Assembly (NCBI GenBank): GCA_035552175.1
Contig: DASZLW010000098.1
Location: forward strand, 1-33,687
Direction of reading: 5' to 3'
DNA: 33,687 bases
DNA from: Gaiellaceae bacterium
Lineage (GTDB): Bacteria > Actinomycetota > Thermoleophilia > Gaiellales > Gaiellaceae
Below are positions 6,479 through 33,687 of the stretch, piece by piece; the stretch's first letter is position 1, and each line of letters opens with the position of its first letter. The notes beneath the pieces were generated by a model. That model saw nothing but the letters and a program-made list of their open reading frames with translations, did not search any database and was not told the origin of the DNA. The translations under genes and the position numbers were made by a program.

Positions 6479-7443
6479 TTCGGCTGCCCTCCCGGGTAGT
6501 AGACGAAGCGGCGGCTGCCGATGAACTGCACGGTGGTGATCACCGCGATCACGAGGAAGAGGAGCCAGGCCATCGCCGAGGCGTAACCGATGTGGAAGTC
6601 GACGAACGCCTGCTGGAAGAGGTAGATCACGTAGGTGAGCGACGCGTCGCCGCCGCTCGAGGTGCCGTTCGGGTTGAAGTAGTAGGCGGTGTAGATCTGC
6701 GCGAAGATCTGGATTCCGTTGATCGTGAGGATGATGAAGGTGAAGAAGAGGGCGGGGCTGATCATCGGCAGCGTTACGTCCTTGAATCGACGCCACGCCG
6801 GTGCACCGTCCATCTCGGCGGCCTCGTAGAGCTGGCGCGGGACGCCCTTGATCGCCGCCAGGTAGATGACGACGTTCGCGCCGACCTGCCACAGCATCAT
6901 GAAGACGAGGCCCGGCTTGACCCAGTTCGGGTCGGTCTCCCAGAAGGGCTGCGGGATGTGCACGATCGCGAGCGCCCGGTCGACGAGCCCGTAGGTGCCG
7001 TTGAAGAGCAGGAGGTAGAGGATCCCCTGCGCGACCGGCGGCGTCAGCACGGGCAGGTAGAACGCCGTGCGGAAGAACCCGGCCGCCTGCCCGATCCGCG
7101 AGAGCATCATCGCAAGGCAGAGGGCGAAGACCATCGTGCCGACCACGTAGAGCGGCGTGAAGATCGCCGTGTTCTCGAGCGAGGTCTTGATATAGGGGTC
7201 GTGGACGATCTGGTGGTAGTTGCTCCACCCGACGCCGTGGGTCGTCCCGATCACGCTGTAGTCCGTGAACGAGAGCACGAGGCTCGCGATCATCGGGCCG
7301 AACGAGAAGACGAGGAACCCCACCAGCCACAGCGAGATGAACCCGTAGGCCCACCAGGTCTCGCGCTCCTTGAAACCCGAGGCCCAGCGCCGGACCCTCG
7401 TTCGAGGGCCCGGCGCCCGGATCGTCGTCGTGCCTACCGCCAC
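6475..7443 (-). CDS. Carbohydrate ABC transporter permease (MalF/CUT1 type)
   Basis: 322-aa ORF starting at GTG. It has multiple TM segments and the EAA loop YEAAEMDGAPAWRRFKDVTLPMISPAL. Confidence 0.85.
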   Translation of the reverse strand: MAVGTTTIRAPGPRTRVRRWASGFKERETWWAYGFISLWLVGFLVFSFGPMIASLVLSFTDYSVIGTTHGVGWSNYHQIVHDPYIKTSLENTAIFTPLYVVGTMVFALCLAMMLSRIGQAAGFFRTAFYLPVLTPPVAQGILYLLLFNGTYGLVDRALAIVHIPQPFWETDPNWVKPGLVFMMLWQVGANVVIYLAAIKGVPRQLYEAAEMDGAPAWRRFKDVTLPMISPALFFTFIILTINGIQIFAQIYTAYYFNPNGTSSGGDASLTYVIYLFQQAFVDFHIGYASAMAWLLFLVIAVITTVQFIGSRRFVYYPGGQPK

Positions 7444-8806: not shown

Positions 8807-8856
8807 CCGCTTATTCCCCCTCCTGACTAGTGAATCTGGGCCTGCCCGGACTGATA

Positions 8857-8873
8857 TGGCAACGTAACCACAT
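8857..8873. promoter_or_regulatory. Candidate LacI-family operator (TGGCAACGTAACCACAT) upstream of the transporter/hydrolase operon
   Basis: Lies 51-67 nt upstream of the SBP ATG in the 175-bp gap after lacI. 14 of 17 positions are identical to the site at 13559-13575 (shared TGGCAACGT...CACAT). The CG-centred imperfect palindrome is typical of LacI/GalR operators. Confidence 0.4.
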
Positions 8874-8981
8874 TTCCCACACTCCGTCAACCGTTCCGCC
8901 ACCTGGAAGTCGGAACGCCGCCGGGTTCTTCCACATCTCGCCGGAAGTAGTCCTCGGCCGCCGGGGCGGCGACTCGCGGCC

Positions 8982-10022
8982 TCAGCTTCTGCGGCCGGTC
9001 GAGCCCCGGATCACGAGGCTCGGCTGGAGGATCTCGACCGAGCTCACGGGCGAGGGAGCGGCGAGGCGCCGGAGCAGCAGACGGGCCGCGTGGCGGCCGA
9101 GGTCGAGGATCGGCTGGGCGACGACGGTCAGCGGAGGGTCGACCATCTCCATCCACGGGACGTCGTCGAAGCCGACGAGGGACACGTCTTCCGGGATGCG
9201 CAACCCGCGGCGGCGGATGACCCGCCAGGCCTCTTCGGTGAGCAGGTTGTTCGCCGCGAAGACCGCTGTCGCACCGGCGCGATCGAGGAGCCCCTCGATG
9301 CGCTCCGGAATGTCAGGCACGTGAAGCGGGATGCGGAGGACGAGGTCCTCGTCGGGCGGCACACCGGCCCGCGCGAGCGCCTTCCGGTAGCCCTCGAGGC
9401 GACCAACGTCGGTCGTCCAGTCGGTCTCGACGCCGAGGAAGGCGATCCGCCGGTGGCCGAGCCCGAGCAGGTGCTCGGTGGCGTGGGCCGCTCCGCGCTC
9501 GTTGTCGATCACCACCGCATCGCACGGCACCCGGACGAGCCGGCGGTCGACCTCGACCACGGCGACCCCCTGCGAGATGAGGAGCTCGCCGGCCTCCGCG
9601 CCGGCGGGGGTCATGATCACGCCGGGGGCGCGCATCGCGAGGAACGTCCGCGCGCCGGCGACCTCCGCGTCGAGCTCGCTGTTGTCGCCGAGCACCACCA
9701 TCTGATGTCCCGCCTCCCGCAGCACCTGCTCGATCCCGGCTGCGAGCCTGGCGTAGAACGGGTTGGCGAGATCGGAGACGACCACTCCTATCGCCCTGCT
9801 CGTGCGGTGCTTGAGCGTGCGCGCGGATGCGTTCGGGACATACCCGAGCCGGTTCGCCGCCTCGAGCAGGCGCTCGCGAACGGGCGCCGAGACGTAACCG
9901 CGGCCGCTGAGCGCACGCGAGGCCGTGGACGGAGACGTTCCCGCCTCGCGGGCGAGATCGACGAGCGTGACCGGCTGCGGAGACGCGGCGACCGGAGGCG
10001 ATTCGAGGGTCACGGCCGCCAC
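8982..10022 (-). CDS. LacI-family transcriptional regulator
   Basis: 346-aa ORF starting at GTG. The N-terminal HTH is VTLVDLAREAGTSPSTASRALSGRGYVS...ARTLK, followed by a periplasmic-binding-protein-like sugar sensor domain. Its start overlaps the end of the upstream hydrolase gene by 13 nt. Confidence 0.9.
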   Translation of the reverse strand: MAAVTLESPPVAASPQPVTLVDLAREAGTSPSTASRALSGRGYVSAPVRERLLEAANRLGYVPNASARTLKHRTSRAIGVVVSDLANPFYARLAAGIEQVLREAGHQMVVLGDNSELDAEVAGARTFLAMRAPGVIMTPAGAEAGELLISQGVAVVEVDRRLVRVPCDAVVIDNERGAAHATEHLLGLGHRRIAFLGVETDWTTDVGRLEGYRKALARAGVPPDEDLVLRIPLHVPDIPERIEGLLDRAGATAVFAANNLLTEEAWRVIRRRGLRIPEDVSLVGFDDVPWMEMVDPPLTVVAQPILDLGRHAARLLLRRLAAPSPVSSVEILQPSLVIRGSTGRRS

Positions 10023-11728
10023 TCCCGGCGGCCCCAGACCCGGCGGATGGCCTCGTAGTCGTCGTCCTCGAGCGCCTCACCGGTCGCGTCGAGGTGCGTC
10101 GCGTAGTAGAGGGAGGGCACGCCGAGCGCCGGCTTCGCCTCGAGGAACGCGCGCCATGTGCGCCGGTCCGGGAGGCACCAGTCGTCCGTGTCGATGGGCA
10201 GCTCGGGAACGGCGGCGCGGACGACGCCCGCCCGGTAGCGCATCTGGGGCACGACGGCGTCCGTCGGCGGCGGCCCCGGATCGTCGAGGCGGAGCACGTC
10301 GTTGAGCCTGATCATGTCGGTGACGTCGACGAAGGCCGGATGGGGGGTGTGGGTGATCACGAGCGCGTCGGGGTTCGCCTCCTTCACGGCTGCATACACC
10401 AGGGAGAGGAGATCGTGCAAGAGGGCGATCCCCCACCCGCGTCCGTGCGCGACGAGCGCAGAGCCGCTCGGCGTCCGGCCGGTGAAGTCGATCTTCAGGC
10501 CGTCGGCGCCGAGCCCGGAACGGCCGACGAGGCGTCCCATGACCTCCCGGAGCAGCTCCCTCGCAGCCGGATTCGTCGGGTCGATCGCAACCGGGAGCCC
10601 GTCGGGGCGGCGGATGCAGAGCTCGTCCGGGACGCCTTCGGGATCCCACGCCTTCCACCAGAGGAGGACCCGGCTGCCCCGGTCGCGCCGGTCGGCGATC
10701 CAGCGGCGGAGGTCGGGCCACTTCACGGGATCCGGCTCGTTGAGACCGTAGGTCGACTGCCACTTGTCGTCGAGCACGACCGTTCCCGGCTCCACCCCGT
10801 GCTCCTCGAGCGCCTCGAGGAAGGCGTCGTAGTTCTCCTGGGTCGCGAGCTTCGCGGCGGGCCCCCGTCCGAGCCGGGACAAGTGGCACTGCGCCCCCCA
10901 GCCGCAGAAGATCGGCTCGCGCCACCATTCCGGCTCCCGCCTCGTGCGGACGGCGGGCGCCGCACCCAGGCGGACGAGCTCGCCCCGGTGGGCGCGCAGA
11001 CCCTCGTACGCGCTCGCCTGGCCGGGTTGGAGGATGAGCGCCGGGGCCTCGAACCGGCCTCGGACGGTCGTGTGACCCTCGTGCTCGAGCAAGAGATGGA
11101 ACGCGCGGTCACCCGGCACGTACGCCGCGCTGACGAAGCGGAGCTCCGAAACGGCGGCGGCGATCCCGAGCGCGAGCCAGCCCCCGTCGACCGAAGCGTC
11201 CGGGTCGTCGACCTCGTCCGGAGCGAGCGCGACGTAGAGCGGCGGGGGCGTGAAGAACCAGTGCCCGCGGCCCGGCGTCCCGTCGCCGCTGACACCGAGG
11301 ATCGCCGGCTCGCTCGCCCCGCGCAGGATCTTCGCGGGGTCACCGGGGTTGGCCGAAAAGAGCGTGCGGAAGCTTGTGCCGGTCGAGACGAAGCCGGTTC
11401 CCGCCGACGGGAGTAGGCGACCGCCGAGGAGGTGGACGTCGGTGACGTCGCCGGCCCCCTCGACCCAGGCTCGAAGGACGAGCGTCTCCTCACCGCACTC
11501 GAGCCGCAGGCCGGCGCCGGCCCAGGCGGTCGAGGTGCGTTCGACGGCGAGCTCGTCGCCGACGAGCCGGACGTCGTCGACGGCGAGCGTCTCGTCCACG
11601 GCTCCGACCCGGTCGAACGCCGACACGAGGCTCAGCGTCAGCCAGTGCTCGCCGGACGGAGACGAGAGCCTCGCCGCGACTGCACCCGGCAGGAGCTCCA
11701 GGGTGTAACTCCGGCGCTCGAGGATCAC
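10010..11728 (-). CDS. Clan GH-D-like (GH31/GH36/GH27-like) TIM-barrel glycosidase, family unassigned
   Basis: 572-aa ORF starting at GTG in a GTGA overlap with the MBL gene stop. It has a beta-rich N-domain, then VVLDDKWQSTYG and GADGLKIDFTGR. These resemble the DDGW / K-x-D nucleophile contexts of GH36/27 and the FKTDFGE context of GH31. The ORF is confident; the family call is by eye only. Confidence 0.6.
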   Translation of the reverse strand: MILERRSYTLELLPGAVAARLSSPSGEHWLTLSLVSAFDRVGAVDETLAVDDVRLVGDELAVERTSTAWAGAGLRLECGEETLVLRAWVEGAGDVTDVHLLGGRLLPSAGTGFVSTGTSFRTLFSANPGDPAKILRGASEPAILGVSGDGTPGRGHWFFTPPPLYVALAPDEVDDPDASVDGGWLALGIAAAVSELRFVSAAYVPGDRAFHLLLEHEGHTTVRGRFEAPALILQPGQASAYEGLRAHRGELVRLGAAPAVRTRREPEWWREPIFCGWGAQCHLSRLGRGPAAKLATQENYDAFLEALEEHGVEPGTVVLDDKWQSTYGLNEPDPVKWPDLRRWIADRRDRGSRVLLWWKAWDPEGVPDELCIRRPDGLPVAIDPTNPAARELLREVMGRLVGRSGLGADGLKIDFTGRTPSGSALVAHGRGWGIALLHDLLSLVYAAVKEANPDALVITHTPHPAFVDVTDMIRLNDVLRLDDPGPPPTDAVVPQMRYRAGVVRAAVPELPIDTDDWCLPDRRTWRAFLEAKPALGVPSLYYATHLDATGEALEDDDYEAIRRVWGRREWRP

Positions 11729-13533
11729 GTCACGCTCACGAGCGCCTCGGCCTGCTGGCCGAACGGGACGTCGCCGACCGTCACGTCGGCGGCGATCGCG
11801 ACGCGCCTGACCGGGCCTCCCACCGTCACGCGGAACCTCGCGAGCCCCGTGCCGTGCGGCTCGAGCGCGACCTCGCGCGCAGGAGGCTCGCTCGACCAGC
11901 CGTCCGGCAACGCGAGCGTGACGGCGGCACTCTCGGCGCGCGCGAATGGATTCAGCACCTCGACCTCCAGCTCGACCGACGCTCCGGAGGCCGCGTGCGA
12001 GCGGTAGGGAGCGATGCGGGCGCCGAAGCCCTCGGCTCCGAGATCGATCTCGTCCAGAGGCAGGAGGTCGCGGTGGAGGCGGGCGAGTCGCGCCCCGTCC
12101 CGCGTCAGCTCCGCGAGATAGTCGTCCGTCACCTGCCGCGGCGGCCAGTGACCGCTGACGATCAGCTCGGGACGGAGCCGCTCGTAGAGCGCGGCGCTCG
12201 CGACGTAGTCGTCGATCCGGAACCGGTTCCGGTACTGGTAGTTGAGGATGTCCGGCTTCACCCCGGCCGAACCGCCTCCCTGCTGGTCACCCGTCGCGAG
12301 CACGCGCCGCCCGTCGACCTCGAGCTCGATCGCGGCCGCATACAGCGTGTGGCCGGGGAGCGGATGGGCCGTCAACTCGTACTCGTTCCAGGAGACTGCC
12401 GCTCCGAGATCGAGCACCCGGTCGACGGGGATCGGATCGAACCAGAGGCACGGGAGGTCATGCAGCTCGGGCCGTTCGAGCACCGGCGCGACGTTCGCCG
12501 GCGCCCAGACCTCGGTTCCGTGCGTCTCGCGCAGGAGCGGGATCCCCGCGACGTGGTCGTCGTGGTAGTGCGTCGTCACCACGGCCTCGACGCGCTCGAT
12601 CCCGTGGTTTCGTTCGAGCGCGCCGATCGACTCGAGCAGCGGGCGCGTCCAGGCCCGCTCGGCCCCGAGCTCCCAGCCGGTCCAGAGGTCGTAACCCCAG
12701 TCGATGAGGAGCGCGGCGCCCGTGGCCGAGAGCAGCGCGTACGAGGTCGCGACGCTCGTGCGGTTGCGCAGGAGGTGGGGCAGGACGGGCTCCCACGGAT
12801 CGTCGAGCCAGCGCTCGAGGTCCCACGGCTCGGCCTGGCCGCGCCGGAGCTCCATGAGCGCGCCGAGCCGTCTCGAGGTCTCGGCGAGCGCGGCCGCGGG
12901 GTTCTCCATCGGCTCCCCGTGGGCGGGCAGGAGCACGTCCGGCCCGCGGCGGGCGAGCATCCCGCACGAGAGGATCGTCGAGGCCTGCCCCTCGACGCCG
13001 CTGTACGACCACTGGGTCGCGGCGAGCGACCAGACCTTTCCGGCGGCGTAGACGAGGTCGCCGCTGAACGCGACGCGCCTGCCGTCGAGGTCGCCGAGAT
13101 AGCTGACCGAGCCCATCGTGTGGCCCGGGGTCGGCAAGGCGAGGAGCTCGACGCCGCCGTAGTCCTCGTGCCGGTATTCGGCGACGGTGCGCGCGGACGG
13201 AACCGATTCGAGAAGCGAGAAGCGCGCCTGACGGAGCTCGTAGTCGTTCGCGACGCGCGCCCGGCTCCAGCGCTCGCCCGCACGCGTCACGAGCTCCTGC
13301 TCGAAGGGAGGGACCCAGATGCGGGCACCCGCCTCCGCCGCGCGCGCGAGCCCCTGGATCCCGTCGCGGTGGTAGTGGGTGACGAGCACGTCGCTGATCC
13401 CGGCGAGGCCCAGCTCGTCGAGCCGGTCGAGCACGGCGCCGCTTCCGAAATCGATGCAGACGCCGACCTCACCTCGCCGGATCACCCACACGTTGCAGGT
13501 GTCGCGAACACGGACGATCTCCGGGGCCGACAC
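11725..13533 (-). CDS. Tandem metallo-beta-lactamase-fold protein with a C-terminal Ig-like (NEW3/CARDB-like) domain
   Basis: 602-aa ORF starting at GTG. Domain 1 motifs: THYHRDG (the last His of HxHxDH is Gly), PGHT, SGD, AHG. Domain 2 motifs: THYHDDH (intact), PGHT, TGD, SGHW. The tail ...VELEVEVLNPFARAESAAVTLALPDGWSSEP...ARFRVTVGG looks like a beta-sandwich. No signal peptide is present. Confidence 0.8.
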   Translation of the reverse strand: MSAPEIVRVRDTCNVWVIRRGEVGVCIDFGSGAVLDRLDELGLAGISDVLVTHYHRDGIQGLARAAEAGARIWVPPFEQELVTRAGERWSRARVANDYELRQARFSLLESVPSARTVAEYRHEDYGGVELLALPTPGHTMGSVSYLGDLDGRRVAFSGDLVYAAGKVWSLAATQWSYSGVEGQASTILSCGMLARRGPDVLLPAHGEPMENPAAALAETSRRLGALMELRRGQAEPWDLERWLDDPWEPVLPHLLRNRTSVATSYALLSATGAALLIDWGYDLWTGWELGAERAWTRPLLESIGALERNHGIERVEAVVTTHYHDDHVAGIPLLRETHGTEVWAPANVAPVLERPELHDLPCLWFDPIPVDRVLDLGAAVSWNEYELTAHPLPGHTLYAAAIELEVDGRRVLATGDQQGGGSAGVKPDILNYQYRNRFRIDDYVASAALYERLRPELIVSGHWPPRQVTDDYLAELTRDGARLARLHRDLLPLDEIDLGAEGFGARIAPYRSHAASGASVELEVEVLNPFARAESAAVTLALPDGWSSEPPAREVALEPHGTGLARFRVTVGGPVRRVAIAADVTVGDVPFGQQAEALVSVT

Positions 13534-23998: not shown

Positions 23999-24391
23999 CT
24001 AGCCAACCCGCTCTGCGAGTTCGCCGATGATTCCCTCCAGGCCGCGGACGCAGCAGAGCCGGTAGGTGTCCTCGTAGTTCTCGACCTCGCCGACGAGCTC
24101 TGCCCCGCCCGATTGCAGGTCGGCGAGGACGGCCTCGATGTCGTCGACCGCGAAAGCGAGATGGCGGATGCCCGGTGTGTTCGCCGGCGCATGCTGGTCG
24201 TCGCCCGGGTGCGACGGCGAGTGGAACTTGATCAGTCGAGCTGCCCGTGACCGTCCGGCGGTTTGAACGAACGCAAACTCCGTTCGTACGCCCTCGGGCC
24301 CACGATGCGATCCACCCAACGGCCCTCGACCGCTCGCTTGCCTCGCAGCTCGAGTCCGTCGAGCGCCCCGGAGGTCAGACGCTCGAGGCAA
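23999..24391 (-). pseudogene. VOC/glyoxalase-family gene remnant (C-terminal module intact, N-terminal half disrupted)
   Basis: The open frame gives LIKFHSPSHPGDDQHAPANTPGIRHLAFAVDDIEAVLADLQSGGAELVGEVENYEDTYRL..., a typical second VOC module. Upstream VOC-like segments alternate between two frames: LELRGKRAVEGRWVDRIVG and PDGHGQL in one, EGVRTEFAFVQT and LIKFHSP in the other. The expected first beta-strand region is occupied by the end of the upstream cNMP-binding gene. Confidence 0.5.
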
Positions 24392-25349
24392 GGCGAGCGT
24401 GTGGGCGCAGCGTTTGCCGCAACGTCGCCGTGAGGTCTCGGAGGATCACGTCGAGGAAAACCTCGGCGATGGTGTCCTCCCGCTCGAACAGCTGCATGAA
24501 GGGTTCGTGCGGCAAGACGAGCAGAAGCGCTCGCTCGCGCGTGATTGCGGTGACCGGAGACGGGCGATCGTCGATGAGACCTTCGTAGCCGAACGCCTTT
24601 CCCGGTCCGGCAAGCCCCACGCGGATGCGCCGGTCTCCGCGAACCAGCACCTTCTCGACCGCTCCGTTGATCGTGAGGTAGCAGGCCGCCGATGGCGCCC
24701 CTTCGGTCAGGAGCGTGCGCCCGCGCGGGCACAGCGCATACCTCCCGGACGTCAGGAAGCCCCAGAGCGCCACAGGATCGAACTCGTGGAAGGTCGCCAT
24801 CCGACTCAGGTACTTGCTGTCGGGTGGACCGCGGAACTCGAGGTTTGCAAAGGCCCGTTCCGCATCGTCGTCCTGACGGCCGGGACGCTCGTTGCCGAGG
24901 GTGGCGGCGAGGTGACCGAGCTGATTGCGCAGGCGCATCGTGAACTGCGAAGCGAGCCGCCGCCTCAGGCGGAACGCCGCCGGATCTCGACGCGCGAGCA
25001 ACGCCGCGAAGTCGCGCCGCGCGAGAGCGAGCACCGTCGCCGTGCTCGTGACCCGAACGCTCATCGTGTGCTCGCCGCCATCGAGCAGGCCGATCTCGCC
25101 GACGATCTCGCCTGGACCCGACGTCCCGATCTCCACGAGGCGATCACCGGGGGCGTGAAGCAAGGCTGCGACGTTCCCATCGACGATGAAGACGAGTTCC
25201 CGCGCCCGGTCTCCCTGACGCCAGAGGATCTCGCCCTCTTGCACCGTGCGGCGACGCACCAGGCGCGCAAGCTCCGCCAGGTCAGCTTCGTCTCGGCCTT
25301 CCAGCAGCGGAACGGTCCCGAGAAAGTCGGCGGTCTCGCGGTCAGACAT
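24375..25349 (-). CDS. Tandem cyclic-nucleotide-binding (CAP-effector) domain protein with no output domain
   Basis: Track ORF 24375..25373 (TTG) trimmed to ATG 25349 (MSDRETADFLGTVPLLEG), which overlaps the upstream gene stop by 8 nt (ATGTCTGA). It has two CNB folds. The cassette regions read GEIVGEIGLLDGGEHTMSVRV and GKAFGYEGLIDDRPSPVTAIT. Confidence 0.8.
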   Translation of the reverse strand: MSDRETADFLGTVPLLEGRDEADLAELARLVRRRTVQEGEILWRQGDRARELVFIVDGNVAALLHAPGDRLVEIGTSGPGEIVGEIGLLDGGEHTMSVRVTSTATVLALARRDFAALLARRDPAAFRLRRRLASQFTMRLRNQLGHLAATLGNERPGRQDDDAERAFANLEFRGPPDSKYLSRMATFHEFDPVALWGFLTSGRYALCPRGRTLLTEGAPSAACYLTINGAVEKVLVRGDRRIRVGLAGPGKAFGYEGLIDDRPSPVTAITRERALLLVLPHEPFMQLFEREDTIAEVFLDVILRDLTATLRQTLRPHARLASSV

Positions 25350-26262
25350 CGAGATCGCGCGTCTCGAAGTCAAGCCCGGAGCCCGTGAGCTCTGCGGTCA
25401 GCATCGAGTACTCGGGCACCTCGAGCCAACTCGACTGGTCGGTCGTCAACGGCTCCGAGGCGATGATCACCGAGCGCGGTACGTCGGCCGCTGTCATCTG
25501 CCAGTCACCGTCGCCCTGGTCGTACTGCCCGCCGAGCGCATACCACAGACTCACGAACGGAAGGTCGGTCTCGAGCATCTCGTCCTCCGCGGGGTACCAG
25601 CCGTAGTCGAACGAAAAGCGGGTCGCTACGAGAACGCGGCCGGTGCTGAGAAAGAGGTTGACCGGGGACGACGTTTCAATGCTGTGGGCAGCGCGTACCG
25701 TGCGGAGGATCCGGAGCGCGCGTGCGGTCGCGTCGGCGAGCTCTCGCGTCTCCGGCGTCCCGTACGGGTCGTCCAGTTGCGACAGGATCAGCGCGTAGAT
25801 CCACTCGGAATCGGTTGTCCCTTCGATGCGCTGTGCGAGCTCGGGTCGCACGTGCTCGACGAGGGAGTAGCGCATGCGCGCGAACTGGCGGAGATGGCCG
25901 TTGTGTGCGAGGACGACGCGGGCGCCGGGGAAGCGGAAGGGGTGCAGGTTTGTGTTGGCGACAACCACCTCATCCGAGTAGGTGACTCCGCGAACGTGGG
26001 CGACGAGGCACGTCGGCGCGACCTTGGCGGAAAGAAAGCGCAGATTGCGGTCGAACGACGGGAGCGTCGTGGTCCTGTAGGTGAACGGCTCCTCAGGGTG
26101 GAGGGAGGTTGGATCCCACGCCTGCATGCCGAAGCCGGCCAGGTTGAGAAAGGTGTTCATCATGCGCGGGCTATACGACTGCGCCACGAGACTGTTGTCG
26201 GCGTCAAACAGCAGGTTCCGCACCGGGAGCGGCTCACCGAGATATGCGAGGACGCGGCACAT
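25342..26262 (-). CDS. Class II (Ntn) glutamine amidotransferase-like amidohydrolase, EgtC/YafJ-like
   Basis: 306-aa ORF starting at ATG. Met-Cys2 (MCRVLAYLGEP) provides the Ntn nucleophile. Also present: VAHVRG, LAHNGHL, TTDSEWIY, IIASEPL. The overall pattern resembles EgtC-type gamma-glutamyl amidohydrolases. Confidence 0.8.
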   Translation of the reverse strand: MCRVLAYLGEPLPVRNLLFDADNSLVAQSYSPRMMNTFLNLAGFGMQAWDPTSLHPEEPFTYRTTTLPSFDRNLRFLSAKVAPTCLVAHVRGVTYSDEVVVANTNLHPFRFPGARVVLAHNGHLRQFARMRYSLVEHVRPELAQRIEGTTDSEWIYALILSQLDDPYGTPETRELADATARALRILRTVRAAHSIETSSPVNLFLSTGRVLVATRFSFDYGWYPAEDEMLETDLPFVSLWYALGGQYDQGDGDWQMTAADVPRSVIIASEPLTTDQSSWLEVPEYSMLTAELTGSGLDFETRDLDV

Positions 26263-26313
26263 GCGTCGATGGTAGGGCTAACATGGATCGAATGTCGCTG
26301 TGAGGAGGACCGG

Positions 26314-26487
26314 ATGAAACGATTCGTCTGCAACGATGTGGTACCGGGCTGCACGTTTGTGACGCAGCGCGAGGGCGACGAGGAGCTGTGGGTGGAAATT
26401 GAGTCGCACGCACGTGACACCCACGGGATGGACGAGGTGCCGCCCGAAGTCGCGGAGACGATCCGCGACGTGATCACCGAGGTTTAG
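26314..26487 (+). CDS. DUF1059-family small protein (57 aa)
   Basis: Only the last 58 codons of track ORF 25246..26487 are credible. ATG 26314 is preceded by a [56 protein letters not shown] matches the DUF1059 pattern (xxFxCxDVVPGC...H...HG). Confidence 0.75.
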
Positions 26488-27599
26488 GTCCCGAAGCCCG
26501 CGGCCGGGAACGCGCCGCGTTCGAGGAACGTCTCGAGCGCCTCGAGGTACGGTTCCAGGTCGAGGCCCTCTTCACGCACCCAGGCGTCGCTGTAGTACGT
26601 GCCGGCATAGCGTTCGCCGCTGTCGCAGATCAGGGTGACGATGCTCCCGCGCTCGCCCCGCGACAGCATCTCGGCCACCAGCAGCAAGGCGCCCCAGACG
26701 TTGGTTCCGGTGGAGCCGCCGACGCTGCGTCCCGTGCGGGCGTGTACGAGGCGCATCGTCGCGATCGAGGCGGCGTCGGGCACCCGGATCATGCGGTCGA
26801 CGATGTTCGGTAGGAACGACGCCTCCAGCCTCTGCCGTCCGATCCCCTCGATGCGTGACGGCCCGCCGGAGAACTCGGAGGGGTCGCCCGACCAGGCTGA
26901 GTAGAAGATCGAGTCCTCCGGGTCGACGACGCACATCAGCGTGGGGTAGTGGCCGAAGCGCGCGTAGCGGCCGATTGTTGCGCTCGTCCCGCCGGTCCCG
27001 GCGCCGACAACGATCCACGCAGGAACGGGGTAACGCTCCTGCGCCATCTGGTTGAAGATCGACTCGGCGATGTTGTTGTTGCCCCGCCAGTCGGTCGCGC
27101 GCTCCGCATACGTGAACTGATCGAGAAAGTATCCGCCCGACTCGTCTGCGAGCCGACGCGCCTCGTCGTACACCGTCGTCGGGTCCTCGACGAGATGGCA
27201 CGCACCTCCGTAACCTTCGATCAACGCGACCTTCTCGGGGCTCGTCGACGTCGGCATGACGGCGACGTACGGCAGCTCCAAGAACCGCGCGAAGTACGCC
27301 TCGGAAATGGCCGTCGAGCCGCTCGAGGCCTCGGCGATCGTCGTCCGCTCGGTGATCCACCCGTTGCAGAGTCCGTACAGGAACAGCGAGCGCGCAAGGC
27401 GGTGCTTGAGGGATCCCGTCGGGTGGACGGATTCGTCCTTCAGGTAGAGGTCGATCCCCCACGCAGCGGGTAGCGGAAAGGTATGCAGGTGCGTATCGGC
27501 CGAGCGGTTGGCGTCAGCCTCGAGACGACGCACGGCCTCGTCCGCCCACACCCTCGAACCAAGCCTCTCCCGCCGATTCACCGCTGCCGTCATGAACAC
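26484..27599 (-). CDS. PLP-dependent enzyme of the cysteine synthase / tryptophan-synthase-beta (PALP) fold, divergent subgroup
   Basis: 371-aa ORF with GTG 27599 or ATG 27593 as start. The Schiff-base lysine context is [17 protein letters not shown] (canonical cysteine synthases have GS-x-KDR). The phosphate-binding loop is [14 protein letters not shown]. Its TAA overlaps the TAG of the convergent DUF1059 gene. Confidence 0.85.
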
Positions 27600-27614: not shown

Positions 27615-29333
27615 TCAGGAGCTTGCCAACCGTGCGGCCGCCACCGCGTTCGCCTCCGCGTGCGCCCGCGAATGTCCCGTTACTGTAGCGAGGAAGTCAT
27701 CGCGCTCGAGCGCGTAGAGCCTGGTAACGCTCTCGGCCCGGACCGTCGCCGTTCGCGGGACGTCGCGGAGCAGGGCGATCTCACCGAAAAAGTCACCCGG
27801 GCCCAAGTGGATGCTCCGCGAGCCGAGGTCGATCACCACATCGCCGGTGTCGATGACGTAAAAACGGTCTCCGGTCGCGCCGGCGCGAACAATCTCGTCC
27901 CCCGGAGCGACATCGAGTTGGATGAGATGGGAGGCGATTTGCTGCTTCGCAACCAGTGACATCGGAGCGAAAAGGGCGACGCCTTCGATCAAGCCGAGTT
28001 GTTCGGACGGAGCAACTTCCGCGTCGATTTCGTGCAGGCGACGATAGATGACCAGGACGAGAACCGGCAGGACGGCGCCGACGATGATCAGGGCCGGCCG
28101 AAGCCCAACCAGGCTCAGAAGGGCGGGCGCGACGGACGAGCCGAGCGCTACCGCTCCCATTGCAAGACCCCATGTCAGGCCGAGCACACGCGTCAGCACC
28201 GCGTTGGGGACGGTTCGCTGCAGGAGCGTAAATCCCGCGACGTCGACGATGGTGTTCGCGGCGCCGACCGCGGCGAGTAGGACAACGACCGGAATCGGAT
28301 AGGAAAGCGGCGCGACCAGCATGATCGGTACACCCCAAAAGACGAGCCCCCAAGCGAAGGGCGGCGCGAGCCGCTCGCCGCGGAGCGAGACTGCGCCGAG
28401 CGCACCGATCAGGCCGCCTGCCCCGATCGCGGCCGTCAGGTAGCCCACCCCGGCGGCTCCACGGTGGAGCACCTGATAGGAAATGACGACGAGCAAGACG
28501 TTAAGGCAGCCGCGGATGAACGTCTGCGACGCGATCAGGCCCACGAGGAGGCGCGCGCGCGGCACCTCGCCGATTGCCTCGAAGCCTTGCCAAACCCCGA
28601 GACCTGCATCGGTCGAGGGCCTGGGAACGCTGCCCTCGACCGACACGCGGGCCAGAACCGCGGCCGAAGCGAGCAGGACGAGCGCCGCGACCACGAAGAC
28701 CGCCGTGGTGTCGGCGAGGGCGACCAGCACACCCGCACCTAGCGGCCCGAGCAGGGTGCCGAGGCTCTCGATCGTCGAGGTCGCACCGTTCGCGGCGATC
28801 AACTCTTGCGCAGTTCGCGAAAGTGATGGAAGCAGTGCGACAAGCGCCGGGCGGAAGAGCGTGGAGCAGATGCCGACCGCAGCTGCGGCACCGAAGACGA
28901 CGATCCGGTCGTCCAACAGAGCTCCCACGGCCGAAACGACGAGAGCCGCCCCGCCGATGAGTGCGAGCCCGAGCAGAAACCGCTCCCGCCGAAAACGATC
29001 GCCGAGGGAGGATGCGAACGGTGCGATGACGGCCGTCGGGAGCAATCGCACGACGCCCGCGGCGCCGACCGCCGTTGATCCGCCGTGGCTGTACGCAAAG
29101 ACGCCGAGAGCCACGAAGTGCGCCCACTCAGCCGAGATCGTCGCGCCCCAGGCCAGTTCTGCGCGCCGGATGTCGCCGTTCGAAGCGGCGACGCGCAGAG
29201 ACTTGATCACCTGACGGAAACGATCCATCAGGCGGTTCGTTCCGACACGACAGCGTCTGAGGACGGCAACGACGAGCCCGTCGCCCTGGTTTCGCGAAGC
29301 CGGTCGACAGATGACGACATCACGCTCGATCAT
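27615..29333 (-). CDS. MFS transporter (EntS/MFS_3-like) fused to a C-terminal canonical cNMP-binding domain
   Basis: About 12 hydrophobic segments, then LFAPMSLVAKQQIASHL...GDRFYVIDTGDVVI...GPGDFFGEIALLRDVPRTATVRAES...ALERDDFLATV. The phosphate-binding cassette FGE..A..PR(T)A is textbook. The start is either ATG 29333 or ATG 29228 (MDRFRQVIKSL). Confidence 0.8.
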   Translation of the reverse strand: MIERDVVICRPASRNQGDGLVVAVLRRCRVGTNRLMDRFRQVIKSLRVAASNGDIRRAELAWGATISAEWAHFVALGVFAYSHGGSTAVGAAGVVRLLPTAVIAPFASSLGDRFRRERFLLGLALIGGAALVVSAVGALLDDRIVVFGAAAAVGICSTLFRPALVALLPSLSRTAQELIAANGATSTIESLGTLLGPLGAGVLVALADTTAVFVVAALVLLASAAVLARVSVEGSVPRPSTDAGLGVWQGFEAIGEVPRARLLVGLIASQTFIRGCLNVLLVVISYQVLHRGAAGVGYLTAAIGAGGLIGALGAVSLRGERLAPPFAWGLVFWGVPIMLVAPLSYPIPVVVLLAAVGAANTIVDVAGFTLLQRTVPNAVLTRVLGLTWGLAMGAVALGSSVAPALLSLVGLRPALIIVGAVLPVLVLVIYRRLHEIDAEVAPSEQLGLIEGVALFAPMSLVAKQQIASHLIQLDVAPGDEIVRAGATGDRFYVIDTGDVVIDLGSRSIHLGPGDFFGEIALLRDVPRTATVRAESVTRLYALERDDFLATVTGHSRAHAEANAVAAARLASS

Positions 29334-30357: not shown

Positions 30358-31217
30358 AGCGGAAGGAGCCAGATCGTCTCGGTGCCGACGGTCGAGAAGC
30401 CGAGCCGTTCGTACAATCTGACCGCGCCGGTCGGGTTCGACGCATCGACCTTCAGGCCGACGGTCGCGACCCCGCGACGCGAGAATTCGGAGAGCCCCTG
30501 ACCGACGAGGGCCGCGCCGAGACCACGACCGCGCTCGGCCGCTGAGACCGCAATGTCCTTCAGCCAGCCGGAGTTCCAGTGAAGCGCGCACCCGGCGAGC
30601 TCGCCCGACCGCTCGGCGATCCACCACACGCGTGGATCGAACTCGGAGTCGCCGATCATCCAGCTCACCCAGGCATCGTGCGCCATCGGCACGTAGCGGG
30701 CATCCCACGCCAGGTACGAGTCGTCGAGGAGGCGGTGCACCGATTCGGCGTCGGCAGGCTCGAACGTGCGTATCGCGATCCCCTCGGGCGGCAGCCGTTC
30801 CGGGAGGGGCTTCCCGAGCGGCCGCCGCATCAGCAGCGTCACACGGTCGAGCCGGAACGGATGCCGCTCGGCGAAGCCGGCGAGGGGGCTCGCCTCCGAG
30901 AGCACGGTGAGCGTCAGCGACCCGAAGCCGAGCTCGCGGGCTCGCGCCGAGAGCCGTTCGAGGAGCTCGTCGGCAACCACGTCACCGGCGGCTGCGAGGA
31001 CGAGCTCCTGCCTGATCGTGACGGCGCCGTAACCGACGAGCCGCCCCGCTTCCTCGACAACGAGGTTGTCCCGACCAAGCACGAACCCGGGAACCTTCCA
31101 TTCCGACCGGAGATGCTCGGCGCGGACCCCGGCGACCCCCGACGCGGCCCGGTTCTGCGCCCCGAGCAGCTCGACGACCGCATCGAGATCCTCCCATTTC
31201 GTTGCACGCACGAGCAT
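30354..31217 (-). CDS. Double-GNAT acetyltransferase, MshD (mycothiol synthase)-like architecture
   Basis: 287-aa ORF starting at ATG with two GNAT modules. The C-terminal module carries the acetyl-CoA motif RGRGLGAALV and KVDASNPTGAVRLYERLGF. Confidence 0.75.
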   Translation of the reverse strand: MLVRATKWEDLDAVVELLGAQNRAASGVAGVRAEHLRSEWKVPGFVLGRDNLVVEEAGRLVGYGAVTIRQELVLAAAGDVVADELLERLSARARELGFGSLTLTVLSEASPLAGFAERHPFRLDRVTLLMRRPLGKPLPERLPPEGIAIRTFEPADAESVHRLLDDSYLAWDARYVPMAHDAWVSWMIGDSEFDPRVWWIAERSGELAGCALHWNSGWLKDIAVSAAERGRGLGAALVGQGLSEFSRRGVATVGLKVDASNPTGAVRLYERLGFSTVGTETIWLLPL

Positions 31218-31255
31218 GGGCGGATTCTGGCAACGCGCCGGTACTCTCCGCTCAG

Positions 31256-31328
31256 GCCCCCATCGTCTAGTGGCCTAGGACTCCGGCCTTTCACGCCGGC
31301 AGCACGGGTTCGAATCCCGTTGGGGGTA
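31256..31328 (+). tRNA. tRNA-Glu (anticodon UUC)
   Basis: GCCCCCATCGTCTAGTGGCCTAGGACTCCGGCCTTTCACGCCGGCAGCACGGGTTCGAATCCCGTTGGGGGTA folds as a 73-nt cloverleaf. It has the anticodon stem CCGGC/GCCGG, loop CTTTCAC, T arm ACGGG-TTCGAAT-CCCGT and a G1-U72 wobble. Its 5' end is only 38 bp from the divergent GNAT start. Confidence 0.95.
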
Positions 31329-31340
31329 TCAAATGTCACA

Positions 31341-31365
31341 TAGTAGAGCCGTTTCGGCTCTACTA
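31341..31365 (+). terminator. Perfect 10-bp stem-loop directly after tRNA-Glu
   Basis: TAGTAGAGCC-GTTTC-GGCTCTACTA begins 13 nt after the tRNA 3' end. There is no U-tract. It could be a processing or termination structure, or part of the attL region. Confidence 0.35.
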
Positions 31366-31449
31366 CACGGGTCATTCGTGACAGTTGGGACGGGCTCGAG
31401 CATGCGGTGCATACACGCTCACCGGGCAGCGACGAAGCGCTGGACAACT

Positions 31450-31494
31450 GGCAGAGAGAGGGTTCACCTGGCAATGATGCGCCCTCTCTCTGCC
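31450..31494. repeat. Perfect 13-bp inverted repeat with 19-nt spacer (GGCAGAGAGAGGG ... CCCTCTCTCTGCC)
   Basis: The arms 31450-31462 and 31482-31494 are exact reverse complements. The repeat sits in non-coding debris between tRNA-Glu and the recombinase remnant. Confidence 0.9.
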
Positions 31495-31504
31495 TACCGA
31501 GTGA

Positions 31505-31760
31505 GGTCAAGAGTTCGACGGCTCGCACTTCCGTGCAGCTCCGCTGTTCCGCCGAGCGCTGAAGGCGGGGAATCTGCTAATCGCCGAGATGACGGCGCGC
31601 GAGGCCGGCAGGCTCGACCTCGGTGAGGCGCTCGAACTCACAGCGTTGATCTCGCTGAACGATCGAGAGCGCGGCCGGCGTGCCGCGATGCGGTGGCTCC
31701 GCTGGTGCCTCGACGCTCGTGAGCCGACGCTCGACGAGACGACAATGGTCGAACCGCCGG
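31505..31760 (+). pseudogene. Fragment of a small alpha-helical actinobacterial hypothetical protein (truncated)
   Basis: The frame is open from 31505: ...FRRALKAGNLLIAEMTAREAGRLDLGEALELTALISLNDRERGRRAAMRWLRWCLDAREPTLDETTMV. There is no credible start or SD, the C-terminus is lost, and it runs into the recombinase remnant. The track fuses it artificially to the Fic ORF. Confidence 0.35.
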
Positions 31761-31902
31761 ATCTCGCTTCTGCAGCTAAGTGGACAGCCGTGGGCGAGGA
31801 TCGGCGAGGAGGTCGGACAGCGGGAACCCTGCCGCGACCGCCAACACGTACACGCACGTGCTCACGGACGAGAGGGAACTCGAATACGAACGGATCCAGT
31901 GA
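31749..31902 (+). pseudogene. Tyrosine recombinase/integrase C-terminal remnant with a frameshift
   Basis: One frame reads SNRRISLLQLSGQPWARIGEEVGQ (31749-31820). After a +1 shift near 31821, the next reads GNPAATANTYTHVLTDERELEYERIQ* (stop 31900-31902). Together these resemble the integrase box II end (HDLRHRRISLL...W.RIGE.VGQ...TANTYTHVL with the catalytic Tyr). Everything N-terminal of this is missing. Confidence 0.55.
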
Positions 31903-31943
31903 GGGCTCACCCGCGGGGATGGGTACCGGGCCAGAACCGGAAG

Positions 31944-31994
31944 TTGAAAACTCTCGGTTGCTTTTCAAGTATCAAGAGATAAACTTGAAAACTG
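31944..31994 (+). promoter_or_regulatory. AT-rich Fic upstream region with three TTGAAAA-type boxes
   Basis: TTGAAAACT occurs at 31944-31952 and again at 31985-31993, ending 3 nt before the Fic ATG. An inverted copy CTTTTCAAG lies at 31961-31969. A possible promoter is -35 TTGAAA with -10 AAGTAT at 17-nt spacing. There is no SD before ATG 31997. Confidence 0.35.
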
Positions 31995-31996
31995 CC

Positions 31997-33169
31997 ATGG
32001 ACATCGCAAGGTTTCGATCATCTCCTGTGGGCAGCCTCGTACCAATCGTCGTTGCCGACGGAGACAAGGAGTGGCGCCACTCGGCGTTCGTGCCGAGCCC
32101 TCTTCCAAAGGAGCTTGAGCTTAAACAGGCCACATGGACGGCGGTAACAGAGGCCTCTGCCGCGCTCGCGCGCCTCGACGGTGCAGCGCACAGACTTCCG
32201 AACCCGTACTTGCTCGTCCGTCCAGCCCTGACGAAGGAGGCTGTCAGCACCTCTGCGCTTGAGGGCACCTACGCCGCGATCGAAGACGTTCTTCAGGCTG
32301 AACTGCTCGAAGAATCGGAACTCACCGCCTCGACAGCTGAGGTGCGCAACTACGTGCTTGCCGCCGAGAAGGGGATCGATCTCATTAAGAAACTGCCGGT
32401 CTGCCGACGCCTTGCGAGGGAGGTCCACGGGGTGCTGATGCGAGGGTCGAGGGGCGACCACGCCGAAATCGGCAATTTCAGGCGCCGGCAAAACTGGATC
32501 GGCACGAGGCGCAGCTCGCCAGTGACAGAGTCTCTGTTCGTGCCGCCGCCTCCTGGCGACGAGCTCGATCGCGGACTCGACGCCTGGGAACGCTGGGTCA
32601 ACGACGCTGGGATAGGGCTGCCATCACTCATTCGCGTGGCCTTGGCGCACTATCAGTTCGAGACGCTTCACCCCTTCATCGACGGCAACGGGCGTGTTGG
32701 CCGCCTTCTCATTGTGCTGACCCTGATGGAACATGGCGATCTGAAGATTCCCCTACTGAACGTCTCTCCCTTTTTCGAGGACGCTCGAGACGAATACATA
32801 GACCACCTTCGAAGCGTGAGCGAAACGGGCGACTTCCAGCCTTGGGTCGTTTTCTTCGCTGAAGCGATTCAAAAGCAGTCGATCGACGCTCTTGAGAAGG
32901 CTGACGAACTCATTAGCCTTCGTGACGAGCTGGTGCGGGTCGTTCACGAGCAACGCGTGCGCGGCGTAGCGCTGAGGATCACGGAGGACTTGATCGGATA
33001 CCCATTTATCACTCCCACACGGGCCGCGGTCAAGTTCGATGTCAGCTACCAGGCCGCGAACTCGGCTATCGCACGACTCGTGGAGATAGGCATCCTTCGC
33101 GAGGCGACCGGAGGCTCCTACGGCCGGATGTTCATGTCGCCGCGCGTTCTAGCTGTGATCAACCGGTAG
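31997..33169 (+). CDS. Fic-family protein (class II, N-terminal Fic_N with inhibitory motif, C-terminal winged HTH)
   Basis: Track ORF 31589..33169 trimmed to ATG 31997 (MDIARFRSSPVG). The canonical active site is HPFIDGNGRVGRLL. The N-terminal inhibitory motif (S/T)xxxE(G/N) appears as TSALEG. The C-terminal wHTH-like region is ITPTRAAVKFDVSYQAANSAIARLVEIGILRE. Confidence 0.9.
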   Translation: MDIARFRSSPVGSLVPIVVADGDKEWRHSAFVPSPLPKELELKQATWTAVTEASAALARLDGAAHRLPNPYLLVRPALTKEAVSTSALEGTYAAIEDVLQAELLEESELTASTAEVRNYVLAAEKGIDLIKKLPVCRRLAREVHGVLMRGSRGDHAEIGNFRRRQNWIGTRRSSPVTESLFVPPPPGDELDRGLDAWERWVNDAGIGLPSLIRVALAHYQFETLHPFIDGNGRVGRLLIVLTLMEHGDLKIPLLNVSPFFEDARDEYIDHLRSVSETGDFQPWVVFFAEAIQKQSIDALEKADELISLRDELVRVVHEQRVRGVALRITEDLIGYPFITPTRAAVKFDVSYQAANSAIARLVEIGILREATGGSYGRMFMSPRVLAVINR

Positions 33170-33275
33170 GCGCAACCTTGTCTTCATTGAGCAGGGACAT
33201 CTGCGCAGGTTTCGTGCCCGCGAGGTGCATACACGGGTGTAACCGAAGCGGCAGAAATACGCGATTTGCAGGTCT

Positions 33276-33296
33276 GTTCGATTCCCGTTGGGCGTA
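33276..33296 (+). repeat. attR-like partial copy of the tRNA-Glu 3' end
   Basis: GTTCGATTCCCGTTGGGCGTA versus the tRNA sequence GTTCGAATCCCGTTGGGGGTA, 19 of 21 identical and in direct orientation. It lies 107 nt downstream of the Fic stop. Confidence 0.6.
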
Positions 33297-33553
33297 GCAA
33301 GAGGCTTGGCGTGGAGCCGACTTGGCTCAACTACGCGGTGTCACAGTTGCCAGAAATATGCCGGGTTTGGGCACGACGTGCAGATTCCGGTGCAACCCTC
33401 GACCAACGATTCCCGAGATCAGGCCCGCGAGGATGCAGCGGGAACCTTGTCGAGGCCATCCATACTCGATCGACCTGGGGAGGGGCAACGGCCTTCGAAG
33501 CGGTCTGACTTACGAGTGACGACGAATCGCCCGGACGGGGAGCAGAGAGGGTC

Positions 33554-33687
33554 TCAGATCCCGTAGAGCGGCGGCTCGAGCGCGATCTCCGCGTCGATGA
33601 CGCGCCGGCGGAAGCCGATCGCGATCGCGTGAGCTCTGTTACGGGCACCGAACTTCGGGAGGATCGACCGCACGTGGCTCTTGACGG
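33554..33687 (-). CDS. LuxR/FixJ-type HTH protein, C-terminal end only (gene continues past the right edge)
   Basis: Hand translation of the minus strand gives ...VKSHVRSILPKFGARNRAHAIAIGFRRRVIDAEIALEPPLYGI*, with the stop at 33554-33556. This matches the third and fourth helices of the LuxR-type DNA-binding domain. Track ORF 33331..33648 is in a different frame and is not credible. Confidence 0.7.
   Translation of the reverse strand, partial: VKSHVRSILPKFGARNRAHAIAIGFRRRVIDAEIALEPPLYGI

Follow-up and report, generated by a model that had tools for sequence, protein, structure and literature searches.

Effectors of cyclic nucleotide monophosphates (cNMPs) in bacteria are mostly transcription factors, or enzymes and channels to which a cyclic nucleotide-binding (CNB) domain is fused; for instance, Pat, the mycobacterial cAMP-regulated acetyltransferase, is an enzyme controlled by its CNB domain. 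In protein kinase A (PKA), a regulatory (R) subunit with tandem CNB-A and CNB-B domains and no catalytic domain of its own acts as a separate sensor that controls a separately encoded enzyme within the R:C holoenzyme. Class II amidotransferases, in turn, rely on an N-terminal Cys nucleophile and hold the glutamine or gamma-glutamyl moiety through Arg, Asn-Gly and Asp residues, a fold and residue set that EgtC (4zfj, 4zfk, 4zfl) displays as a stand-alone enzyme. Here, a 33,687-nt stretch of a Gaiellaceae genome (contig DASZLW010000098.1, positions 1 to 33,687, hereafter the window) was analyzed, on which the gene of an EgtC-like N-terminal-nucleophile (Ntn) enzyme of the glutamine amidotransferase fold (GATase) overlaps the gene of an output-less tandem-CNB protein (CNB2). 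Comparative evidence points to a two-protein module in which the stand-alone Ntn amidohydrolase would be regulated in trans by a tandem-CNB subunit resembling PKA R, a reading to which a probability of about 0.55 is assigned. The elements that make up the pair are as follows.

25342..26262, minus strand: EgtC-like stand-alone class-II (Ntn) GATase-fold amidohydrolase (Pfam GATase_4, Foldseek, conserved residues)
24375..25349, minus strand: CNB2, output-less tandem cNMP-binding-fold protein, 324 aa (two PF00027 stretches, Foldseek)
25342..25349, minus strand: 8-nt GATase/CNB2 overlap ATGTCTGA, with the GATase stop inside the CNB2 start
24990..25250, minus strand: CNB domain A, residues 34-120 (cassette GEIGLLDGGEHTMS at about 25059-25112)
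24480..24728, minus strand: CNB domain B, residues 208-290 (cassette region GKAFGYEGLIDDRPSPVT at about 24549-24602)
26269..26274, minus strand: -10-like hexamer TACCAT, its last base 7 nt ahead of the GATase ATG

Two known folds encoded by overlapping genes

The 306-aa GATase, whose open reading frame (ORF) translation begins with MCRVLAYLG and contains an internal VVLAHNGHL, matches Pfam GATase_4 (2.2e-13, 50.2 bits versus a cut-off of 23), and its best NCBIfam match is EgtC TIGR03442, at 140.3 bits, under the cut-off of 218.65. A phmmer search against solved structures recovered 3mdn (1.5e-17) and EgtC 4zfj (1.3e-6), and in these alignments the motifs MCR, VR(G/S), HNG and (T/V)DSE are in register, placing the nucleophile position at Cys2 and the glutamine/gamma-glutamyl binding set at Arg91, Asn121-Gly122 and Asp151. 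Across phyla, 18-30 diverse homologues show no change at R91, N121, G122 or D151 and almost none at C2. The top PDB matches of the AlphaFold2 model (pLDDT 90.9) in Foldseek were all EgtC chains, followed by 3mdn, with the best match, EgtC 4zfl, at an E-value of 2e-16 and a TM score of 0.84 normalised to the target (EgtC). The 306-aa protein therefore has the features of the class-II Ntn GATase fold, namely a Cys directly after the initiator Met, the Arg, the Asn-Gly pair and the Asp, and from its alignments and predicted structure it looks catalytically intact. In contrast to EgtC, to which it is about 20% identical, it is about 70 residues longer (306 versus about 235 aa) and forms its own family tied to a CNB protein. 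This family is distinct and unusually conserved, at about 304-307 aa, its Thermoleophilia members being 48-53% identical to those labelled Myxococcales, Deltaproteobacteria, SAR324 and Pseudomonadota.

Neither a fused nor a partnered synthase/acceptor domain was found, the 306-aa protein being a single domain and its conserved neighbour the CNB protein. Since an acceptor domain is missing, the enzyme was read as an EgtC-type stand-alone amidohydrolase and assignment as a true glutamine amidotransferase was rejected; the term "amidotransferase" used in an earlier sequence-only reading of this locus was thus loose. A true EgtC/ergothioneine cluster was also rejected, given the score under the equivalog cut-off and the lack of egt genes in the window, where Pfam scans of the ORFs found none of the egtA, egtB (FGE-sulfatase/DinB), egtD or egtE types; EgtC is retained as the closest enzyme analogue. 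In one related locus (L018, 1165-3653), a second EgtC-like paralogue (163 bits to TIGR03442, under the cut-off) lies beside a glutamate decarboxylase gene, a few kb from the module.

CNB2 occupies an ORF at 24375-25373 on the minus strand and comprises 324 aa when read from the ATG at 25349 (MSDRETADF...). Its sole Pfam family is cNMP_binding (PF00027), matched in two stretches (3.9e-32, 110.5 bits), each of which exceeds the gathering score of 27.5 alone: domain A at 64 bits (residues 34-120 on profile positions 2-88, of equal length) and domain B at 50.5 bits (residues 208-290 on profile positions 5-88). Pfam detected no HTH_Crp_2, no other helix-turn-helix (HTH) and no further domain in CNB2, and the NCBIfam CRP model scored 45.5 bits versus a cut-off of 266. 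A CRP/FNR transcription factor was rejected because there is no HTH and the region past domain A is a second CNB fold; the JGI name "CRP/FNR family transcriptional regulator" given to homologues is therefore an over-annotation. Neither GATase nor CNB2 reaches the cut-off of any curated NCBIfam model.

In Foldseek, the best 50 matches of the CNB2 model were the tandem CNB-A/B regions of PKA regulatory subunits and PKG (e.g., 6rsx at 1.6e-16, 5j3u, 1rl3, and 2qcs), with both domains aligned over approximately 285-385 columns, and the trypanosomatid PKA-R structures 6flo and 6hyq were among the fold matches. Identity to PKA-R/PKG was about 13-19% and the TM score was low, at about 0.3, because the orientation between the domains differs or is poorly modelled. 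CNB2 thus shares with PKA R the tandem CNB-A/CNB-B architecture, as found in PKA and PKG, and the lack of a catalytic domain, and R subunits are its best structural matches. Unlike PKA R, it has no N-terminal dimerisation/docking domain, for which its short N-terminus leaves no room (the first Pfam match begins at residue 34), and its conserved partner is a GATase_4 Ntn amidohydrolase rather than a kinase; among the window ORFs, Pfam detected no protein-kinase domain, and CNB2 showed no evident inhibitor (pseudosubstrate) sequence, although no search was aimed at one. The two sites also depart from PKA R, site B having neither cassette residue and site A having His for Arg. The best NCBIfam match of CNB2 is the family 2B encapsulin model encap_f2b (63.9 bits, cut-off 400), which reflects the CBD insertion of EshA/Sg Enc; in these encapsulins, a single CNB is inserted in an HK97-fold shell protein, whereas CNB2 has no shell domain. 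A weak match (39.8 bits) to Pat, likewise actinobacterial, differs in that Pat belongs to another enzyme class and is regulated in cis, through one canonical CNB fused to its GNAT domain.

Conservation of the pair and its junction

To survey the neighbourhood, one genome per GTDB species was scanned with a query alignment of 8 sequences, and 80 loci were returned, all with Thermoleophilia-type context (Gaiellales, Solirubrobacterales, Miltoncostaeaceae, and Thermoleophilaceae, apart from a few bins with unexpected labels) and with CNB2 proteins 49-81% identical. GATase is located immediately upstream of CNB2 in 78 of the 80, the exceptions being L072, whose short length leaves this undecided, and L060, from which the adjacent GATase has been lost. 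The sequence-only reading had described a GATase that ends 8 nt inside the start of the tandem-CNB gene; reading the junction, GAT CTC GAT GTC TGA with an embedded ATG, gives exactly this 8-nt overlap, ATGTCTGA, at 25342-25349. The identical junction, GATGTCTGA, was called automatically in 75 of the 80 loci, and 3 of the remaining 5 visibly keep the motif, so the pairing and its overlap are present well beyond the source genome. The four-gene module (Cds1-like, DUF1059, GATase, and CNB2) occurs twice in tandem in one Thermoleophilia metagenome-assembled genome (MAG; L007, approximately 400-3680 and 3700-6972). Apparent GATase or CNB2 frameshifts in long-read MAG contigs (L001/L031 at about 7782-7784 (5782-5784), L026, and L079) look like assembly errors rather than pseudogenes, since both flanking reading frames stay highly conserved.

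Outside this clade, divergent tandem-CNB proteins were used to seed a metagenome scan, and the CNB2 relatives it recovered, although they share just 24-42% identity with the window protein, are still beside a GATase. The GATase precedes CNB2 in L083-L087 and, with a 16-nt gap, in L096; the order is reversed in L100; and in L097 a Cds1-like gene and then GATase lie on one strand, convergent with CNB2. In addition, a sample of ten GATase representatives, with about 50% identity to the window enzyme, was taken outside Thermoleophilia. Nine of them have a CNB gene adjacent or two genes away, encoding 323-365 aa where intact, and for eight of these nine CNB proteins an alignment to the window CNB2 over the full length, through both domains, was confirmed. 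Their arrangements are as follows.

L163: PALP-GATase-CNB group, with a cyclase-domain gene also near
L164: Myxococcales MAG, convergent
L167/168: tandem CNB fused to an amine oxidase (766-aa fusion), directly upstream of GATase
L169: CNB directly upstream of GATase
L170: SAR324, convergent
L171: convergent
L172: CNB two genes away
L173: CNB then GATase, with a reversed-order 8-nt overlap ATGTGTAG
L174: convergent

Four gene orders of GATase and CNB2 were thus observed across the loci. That adjacency is kept through four gene orders and phylum-level divergence, while other neighbours change, argues strongly, on comparative grounds, that the two proteins are specifically linked in function. The proposal of the sequence-only reading that the CNB protein is a regulatory subunit of the enzyme is partly supported: the conserved pair, the coupling and the cross-phylum recurrence in other orders are as it predicts.

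Several individual loci add detail. A 401-aa protein (P0194) considered as a GATase-CNB fusion was rejected as a frameshift artefact. A 1413-aa protein (P0372) combines protein kinase, globin and Aminotran_5 domains with a full-length tandem-CNB copy, 31% identical over query residues 13-321. In L163, the PALP-GATase-CNB group is followed by genes for a 963-aa CNB protein and a SAM/AAA/Guanylate_cyc (class III cyclase) protein (8177-11068 and 12102-12915), and this cyclase could be a local source of cyclic nucleotide.

The sequence upstream of the pair suggests how it may be expressed. For most of the 45 listed spacers, the hexamer TACGAT takes the place of the window TACCAT, likewise ending 7 nt 5′ of the GATase ATG, and the geometry of this -10-like box, which is that of leaderless actinobacterial transcripts, would imply a leaderless GATase-CNB2 transcript, with the transcription start predicted from the box. 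There is no strong Shine-Dalgarno sequence ahead of CNB2 at the window junction, which, together with the -10-like box, fits coupled 1:1 synthesis of the two proteins. The DUF1059-GATase spacers (window 26263-26313; L003-L082) range from 44 to 111 nt, and in all of them a TACGAT-like box positioned for a leaderless GATase mRNA accompanies a TAGTAT-like box and an AGGAGG placed for DUF1059; those of the ~99-nt class contain a recurrent unexplained motif, GCTGACGA. No operator shared by DUF1059 and GATase was apparent in these spacers, which showed just the -10-like boxes and the GCTGACGA motif.

Cassette residues and the proposed mode of regulation

In CNB domains, the Glu of the phosphate-binding cassette contacts the ribose 2′-OH and the Arg contacts the cyclic phosphate. 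The canonical form of this cassette (Glu and Arg within G-E-x-x-L...R-[STA]-A) is present at neither site of CNB2. Domain A reads G84-E85-I-G-L-L-D-G-G-E-H94-T95-M96, in which the Gly, Glu and Thr are kept and His and Met replace Arg and Ala; domain B reads F-G254-Y255-E-G-L-I-D-D-R-P-S264-P, with Tyr for Glu and Ser for Arg. All four replacements had been named in the sequence-only reading, and they hold in three alignments that agree with each other: phmmer to solved CNBs (e.g., 4ev0 GEMSLLDEGERSAS against CNB2 GEIGLLDGGEHTMS), MAFFT to RIalpha, and calibrated PF00027 coordinates. For the latter, a PKA RIalpha-B control placed the cassette Glu at profile position 53 and the Arg at 62, assuming no gap between the cassette and the match end, and under the same assumption these positions correspond to E85/H94 in domain A and Y255/S264 in domain B. 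The major facilitator superfamily (MFS) protein at 27615-29333, which had served as the earlier canonical reference, does carry a canonical CNB motif, GDFFGEIALLRDVPRTATVRA.

Among 78 Thermoleophilia orthologues, position 94 is His in 66, Arg in 6, Thr in 3, Gln in 2 and Asn in 1; E85 is kept in 75 and Y255 in 76, and position 264 is Ser in 68 and Ala in 9. FG 253-254 and R271-E272-R273 are (near-)invariant, and domain B is the best-conserved part of CNB2, above site A. This pattern indicates that the substituted residues are under selection and not decaying. In GATase-linked partners generally, site A is usually canonical (GE[LIM]xL...R[STAW]A[ST]), whereas site B never has the cassette Glu, with Y, H, T, S, A, Q, F, L or I in its place, and is variable at the Arg position. 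His at the site-A Arg position is typical of the Thermoleophilia clade and is also found in the SAR324 homologue L170, with Cys in L171; in remoter tandem-CNB proteins of about 330 aa, for which the gene context is unknown, both cassettes are often canonical. Most simply, the ancestral state would be one working nucleotide site (A) and one conserved pseudo-site (B), and by this distribution the Arg-to-His change at site A of the window protein is a derived state in Thermoleophilia. The earlier description of both cassettes as degenerate thus stands for the Thermoleophilia clade and fails for the family, in which site A is mostly canonical and site B alone is consistently non-canonical; even in the window protein, the degeneracy of domain A is partial, extending to the Arg and Ala and sparing the Gly, Glu and Thr. 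From these residues, it is reasonable to expect no standard cAMP/cGMP binding at site B and plausible to expect none at site A, where His could still contact the phosphate.

A second tandem-CNB paralogue (28-31% identical) is located directly 3′ of CNB2 in some Solirubrobacterales-type loci (L074, 7152-8063; L080, 6972-7844; L073, 3037-3777; L079, 7527-7982); the L074 copy combines a canonical site B (GEVALVDGGPRSAT) with His at site A.

What the sequences show directly is which domains the two proteins have, the state of their catalytic and cassette residues, and a conserved, overlapping gene pair; the mechanism proposed on this foundation draws on genomics to infer that GATase and CNB2 bind each other, which way activity is regulated, and what the ligand and substrate are. 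GATase would remove a gamma-linked glutamate, or hydrolyse a glutamine-like amide, from a small molecule, as EgtC does. CNB2, made in fixed proportion to the enzyme from a leaderless, translationally coupled mRNA, would be its dedicated partner, acting in trans like a PKA regulatory subunit: it would bind GATase, whose activity would change upon ligand binding at site A. This ligand would ancestrally be a 3′,5′-cyclic nucleotide, with the His in place of the phosphate-binding Arg in Thermoleophilia possibly marking an altered or weaker-binding ligand, and site B would serve as a conserved pseudo-site with no standard nucleotide binding, functioning as a docking or allosteric-relay module. A gamma-glutamyl-cysteine-type substrate that feeds the Cds1-like enzyme is a low-confidence guess, suggested by the EgtC-like pocket residues, the recurrent Cds1-type neighbour and the Aminotran_5-fused relative P0372. 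A broader version is offered tentatively, at somewhat less than even odds: that this is the first example of a widespread bacterial R-subunit system in which a free tandem-CNB protein binds a separately encoded Ntn gamma-glutamyl amidohydrolase and gates it in trans by a second messenger, with a cNMP at site A in most lineages and maybe a new ligand in Thermoleophilia.

A number of observations weigh against regulation of GATase by CNB2 as a nucleotide-responsive subunit. The AlphaFold2 model of CNB2 is of moderate quality (pLDDT 69), with the site-A cassette below 50. One sampled GATase lineage of the ten (L165/166) has no CNB neighbour, no natural GATase-CNB fusion was present among the homologues listed, and neighbours other than Cds1 and DUF1059 differ between lineages. 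In L060 (4437-6935), the Cds1-like gene, DUF1059 and CNB2 are kept with no GATase between them and a spacer of about 190 nt, so CNB2 can persist without an adjacent enzyme. With a cassette Arg at neither site, cNMP binding by the window CNB2 may be absent; CNB folds that lack this Arg generally show no cAMP response and may bind other ligands (PMC11550324).

The last point bears directly on the possibility that the architecture is as proposed and CNB2 senses a molecule other than a cyclic nucleotide in Thermoleophilia, and possibly at site B family-wide, with a nucleoside, a pathway substrate or product, glutamate, 2-oxoglutarate or a thiol as candidates for feedback or feed-forward control of GATase. 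The replacements at both sites (His94 and Ser264) are conserved, and conservation is higher at the substituted site B than at site A, suggesting retained function. There are also precedents: Arg-less CNB folds bind heme, chlorophenolacetate, 2-oxoglutarate or peptides, and the EshA/Sg Enc CBD, an actinobacterial CNB fold with Trp for the cassette Arg, experimentally does not bind cAMP (PMC11550324). Trypanosomatid cAMP-independent PKA-R, a tandem-CNB protein like CNB2 in which polar residues replace the cassette Arg, binds purine nucleosides at its sites and still regulates allosterically (PMC10959531). This latter system is nevertheless eukaryotic with a kinase partner, and its signature extra Glu at the RIalpha-A202/A326 positions is absent from CNB2, which has Gly87 and Ser257 there. 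Moreover, site A is fully canonical in most GATase-linked relatives, Arg is still at position 94 in 6 Thermoleophilia orthologues, and, as noted, the His may remain a phosphate contact. A non-nucleotide ligand is judged unlikely, albeit far from negligible.

Two further explanations dispense with ligand control of the enzyme. The yeast class-II GATase-like Dug3 has a non-catalytic partner, Dug2, and CNB2 could resemble the latter as a ligand-independent structural partner with both pockets dead, which folds, stabilises or assembles GATase. Translational coupling and tight co-occurrence fit such an obligate subunit, as do the lack of a cassette Arg at either site of the window protein and the approximately twofold faster evolution of CNB2 than of the enzyme (mean pairwise distances of 0.43 versus 0.21). 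Without a ligand, however, it is difficult to see why site A would retain its Gly-Glu core and, in most other lineages, the complete canonical cassette, and neither the solved EgtC and 3mdn-type structures nor the L165/166 lineage has such a partner; this explanation appears improbable. Equally little probability is given to co-expression without interaction, with CNB2 as a general small-molecule receptor or buffer for other targets (Cds1, a CNB-fused transporter or oxidoreductases, or unlinked proteins) and adjacency reflecting shared regulation. CNB-fused proteins are indeed encoded nearby (the MFS-CNB protein of the window, two CNB-Pyr_redox_2 proteins in L001, and the 963-aa CNB protein with a cyclase in L163), and L060 retains CNB2 without GATase. 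Against this, adjacency across phyla is specific to GATase in all four gene orders while every other neighbour changes, and the overlap is conserved at the nucleotide level. Mirror-tree analysis points the same way, with GATase-CNB2 distances correlated at r = 0.80 (partial r 0.65 given Cds1, versus 0.12 for GATase-Cds1 given CNB2), favouring the pair over either protein with Cds1; a correlation of this kind is weak alone and may be raised artificially where phylogeny is shared or the control gene has paralogues, which counts among the points against the R-like module as well.

The folds discussed here are well known, but an EgtC-like Ntn hydrolase paired across phyla with a free-standing CNB2 of the PKA-R type appears to be undescribed. 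In agreement with the sequence-only reading, which did not recognise the pair as a described system, no published description was found in literature searched for the pairing, YafJ/GATase_4, DUF1059 and bacterial tandem cAMP-binding proteins, and no NCBIfam model was reached at its cut-off. If the R-like module is real, it would represent a different wiring of second-messenger control, with a free tandem CNB dedicated to a separately encoded metabolic enzyme, and would extend the holoenzyme logic of PKA beyond kinases and beyond eukaryotes, in connection with glutamate/cysteine-thiol metabolism. It would also provide a first functional handle on the ~305-aa "class II glutamine amidotransferase" family, which comprises >3,000 clusters at 90% identity, and on its tandem-CNB partners. 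The variation of the phosphate-binding position (Arg, His, Thr, Gln, Asn, and Cys) within one orthologous system would offer a series for the evolution of CNB specificity, and the Cds1-type desulfhydrase link would hint that abundant, uncultured Actinomycetota of soil place thiol or glutamate turnover under signal control.

Neighbouring genes and other features of the window

Upstream of the pair, three further genes were delineated.

26314..26487, plus strand: DUF1059 small Cys/His protein, 57 aa (Pfam DUF1059 3e-18), divergent from GATase
26484..27599, minus strand: Cds1-like pyridoxal phosphate (fold type II) L-cysteine desulfhydrase homologue (NCBIfam Cds1 NF052478, 595.6 bits versus a cut-off of 600)
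27615..29333, minus strand: MFS transporter with a C-terminal canonical CNB domain (GEIALLRDVPRTAT; Pfam), variable context

A tblastn match to DUF1059 is present in 75 of the 80 Thermoleophilia loci, most of them immediately upstream of GATase and divergent, and a match to the Cds1-like gene in 64 (for Cds1 function, see PMC8389258). The Cds1-like and DUF1059 genes overlap tail to tail by 4 nt in the window (26484-26487), in L001 (6821-6824) and in L002 (6816-6819), and the recurrence of this convergent overlap in relatives suggests that DUF1059 is a fixed part of the neighbourhood. In L097 and L163, a Cds1-like gene lies directly upstream of GATase on the same strand. Genes for redox or transport proteins with a fused CNB are grouped around the GATase-CNB2 module; for instance, L001 has two fusions of CNB with Pyr_redox_2 (pyridine-nucleotide-disulfide oxidoreductase) at 2195-5297, where the window has the MFS-CNB gene. 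A Pycsar/CBASS anti-phage system was considered and rejected: PADLOC gave weak CNB-region matches (PycTIR and effector models, about 36 bits), with no cyclase, no TIR or TM part and no GATase match.

The window has a G+C content of 65-74%, its nearest homologues come from soil metagenomes and MAGs labelled Gaiellaceae or Thermoleophilia, and its remaining genes include sugar utilisation functions, methyltransferases and a LuxR/AAA_16 regulator. Immediately 3′ of CNB2, a 130-aa ORF (23999-24391, minus strand) overlaps the end of the gene by 17 nt and has weak glyoxalase/VOC matches (residues 42-111); a VOC gene that is truncated, or whose start was misassigned, may explain it, and L001 and L002 have none directly 3′ of CNB2. 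At the other end of the window, G+C falls to 0.60-0.64 over 31001-33687, a region that encodes a Fic/DOC protein (31589-33169, plus strand) and may be acquired DNA.

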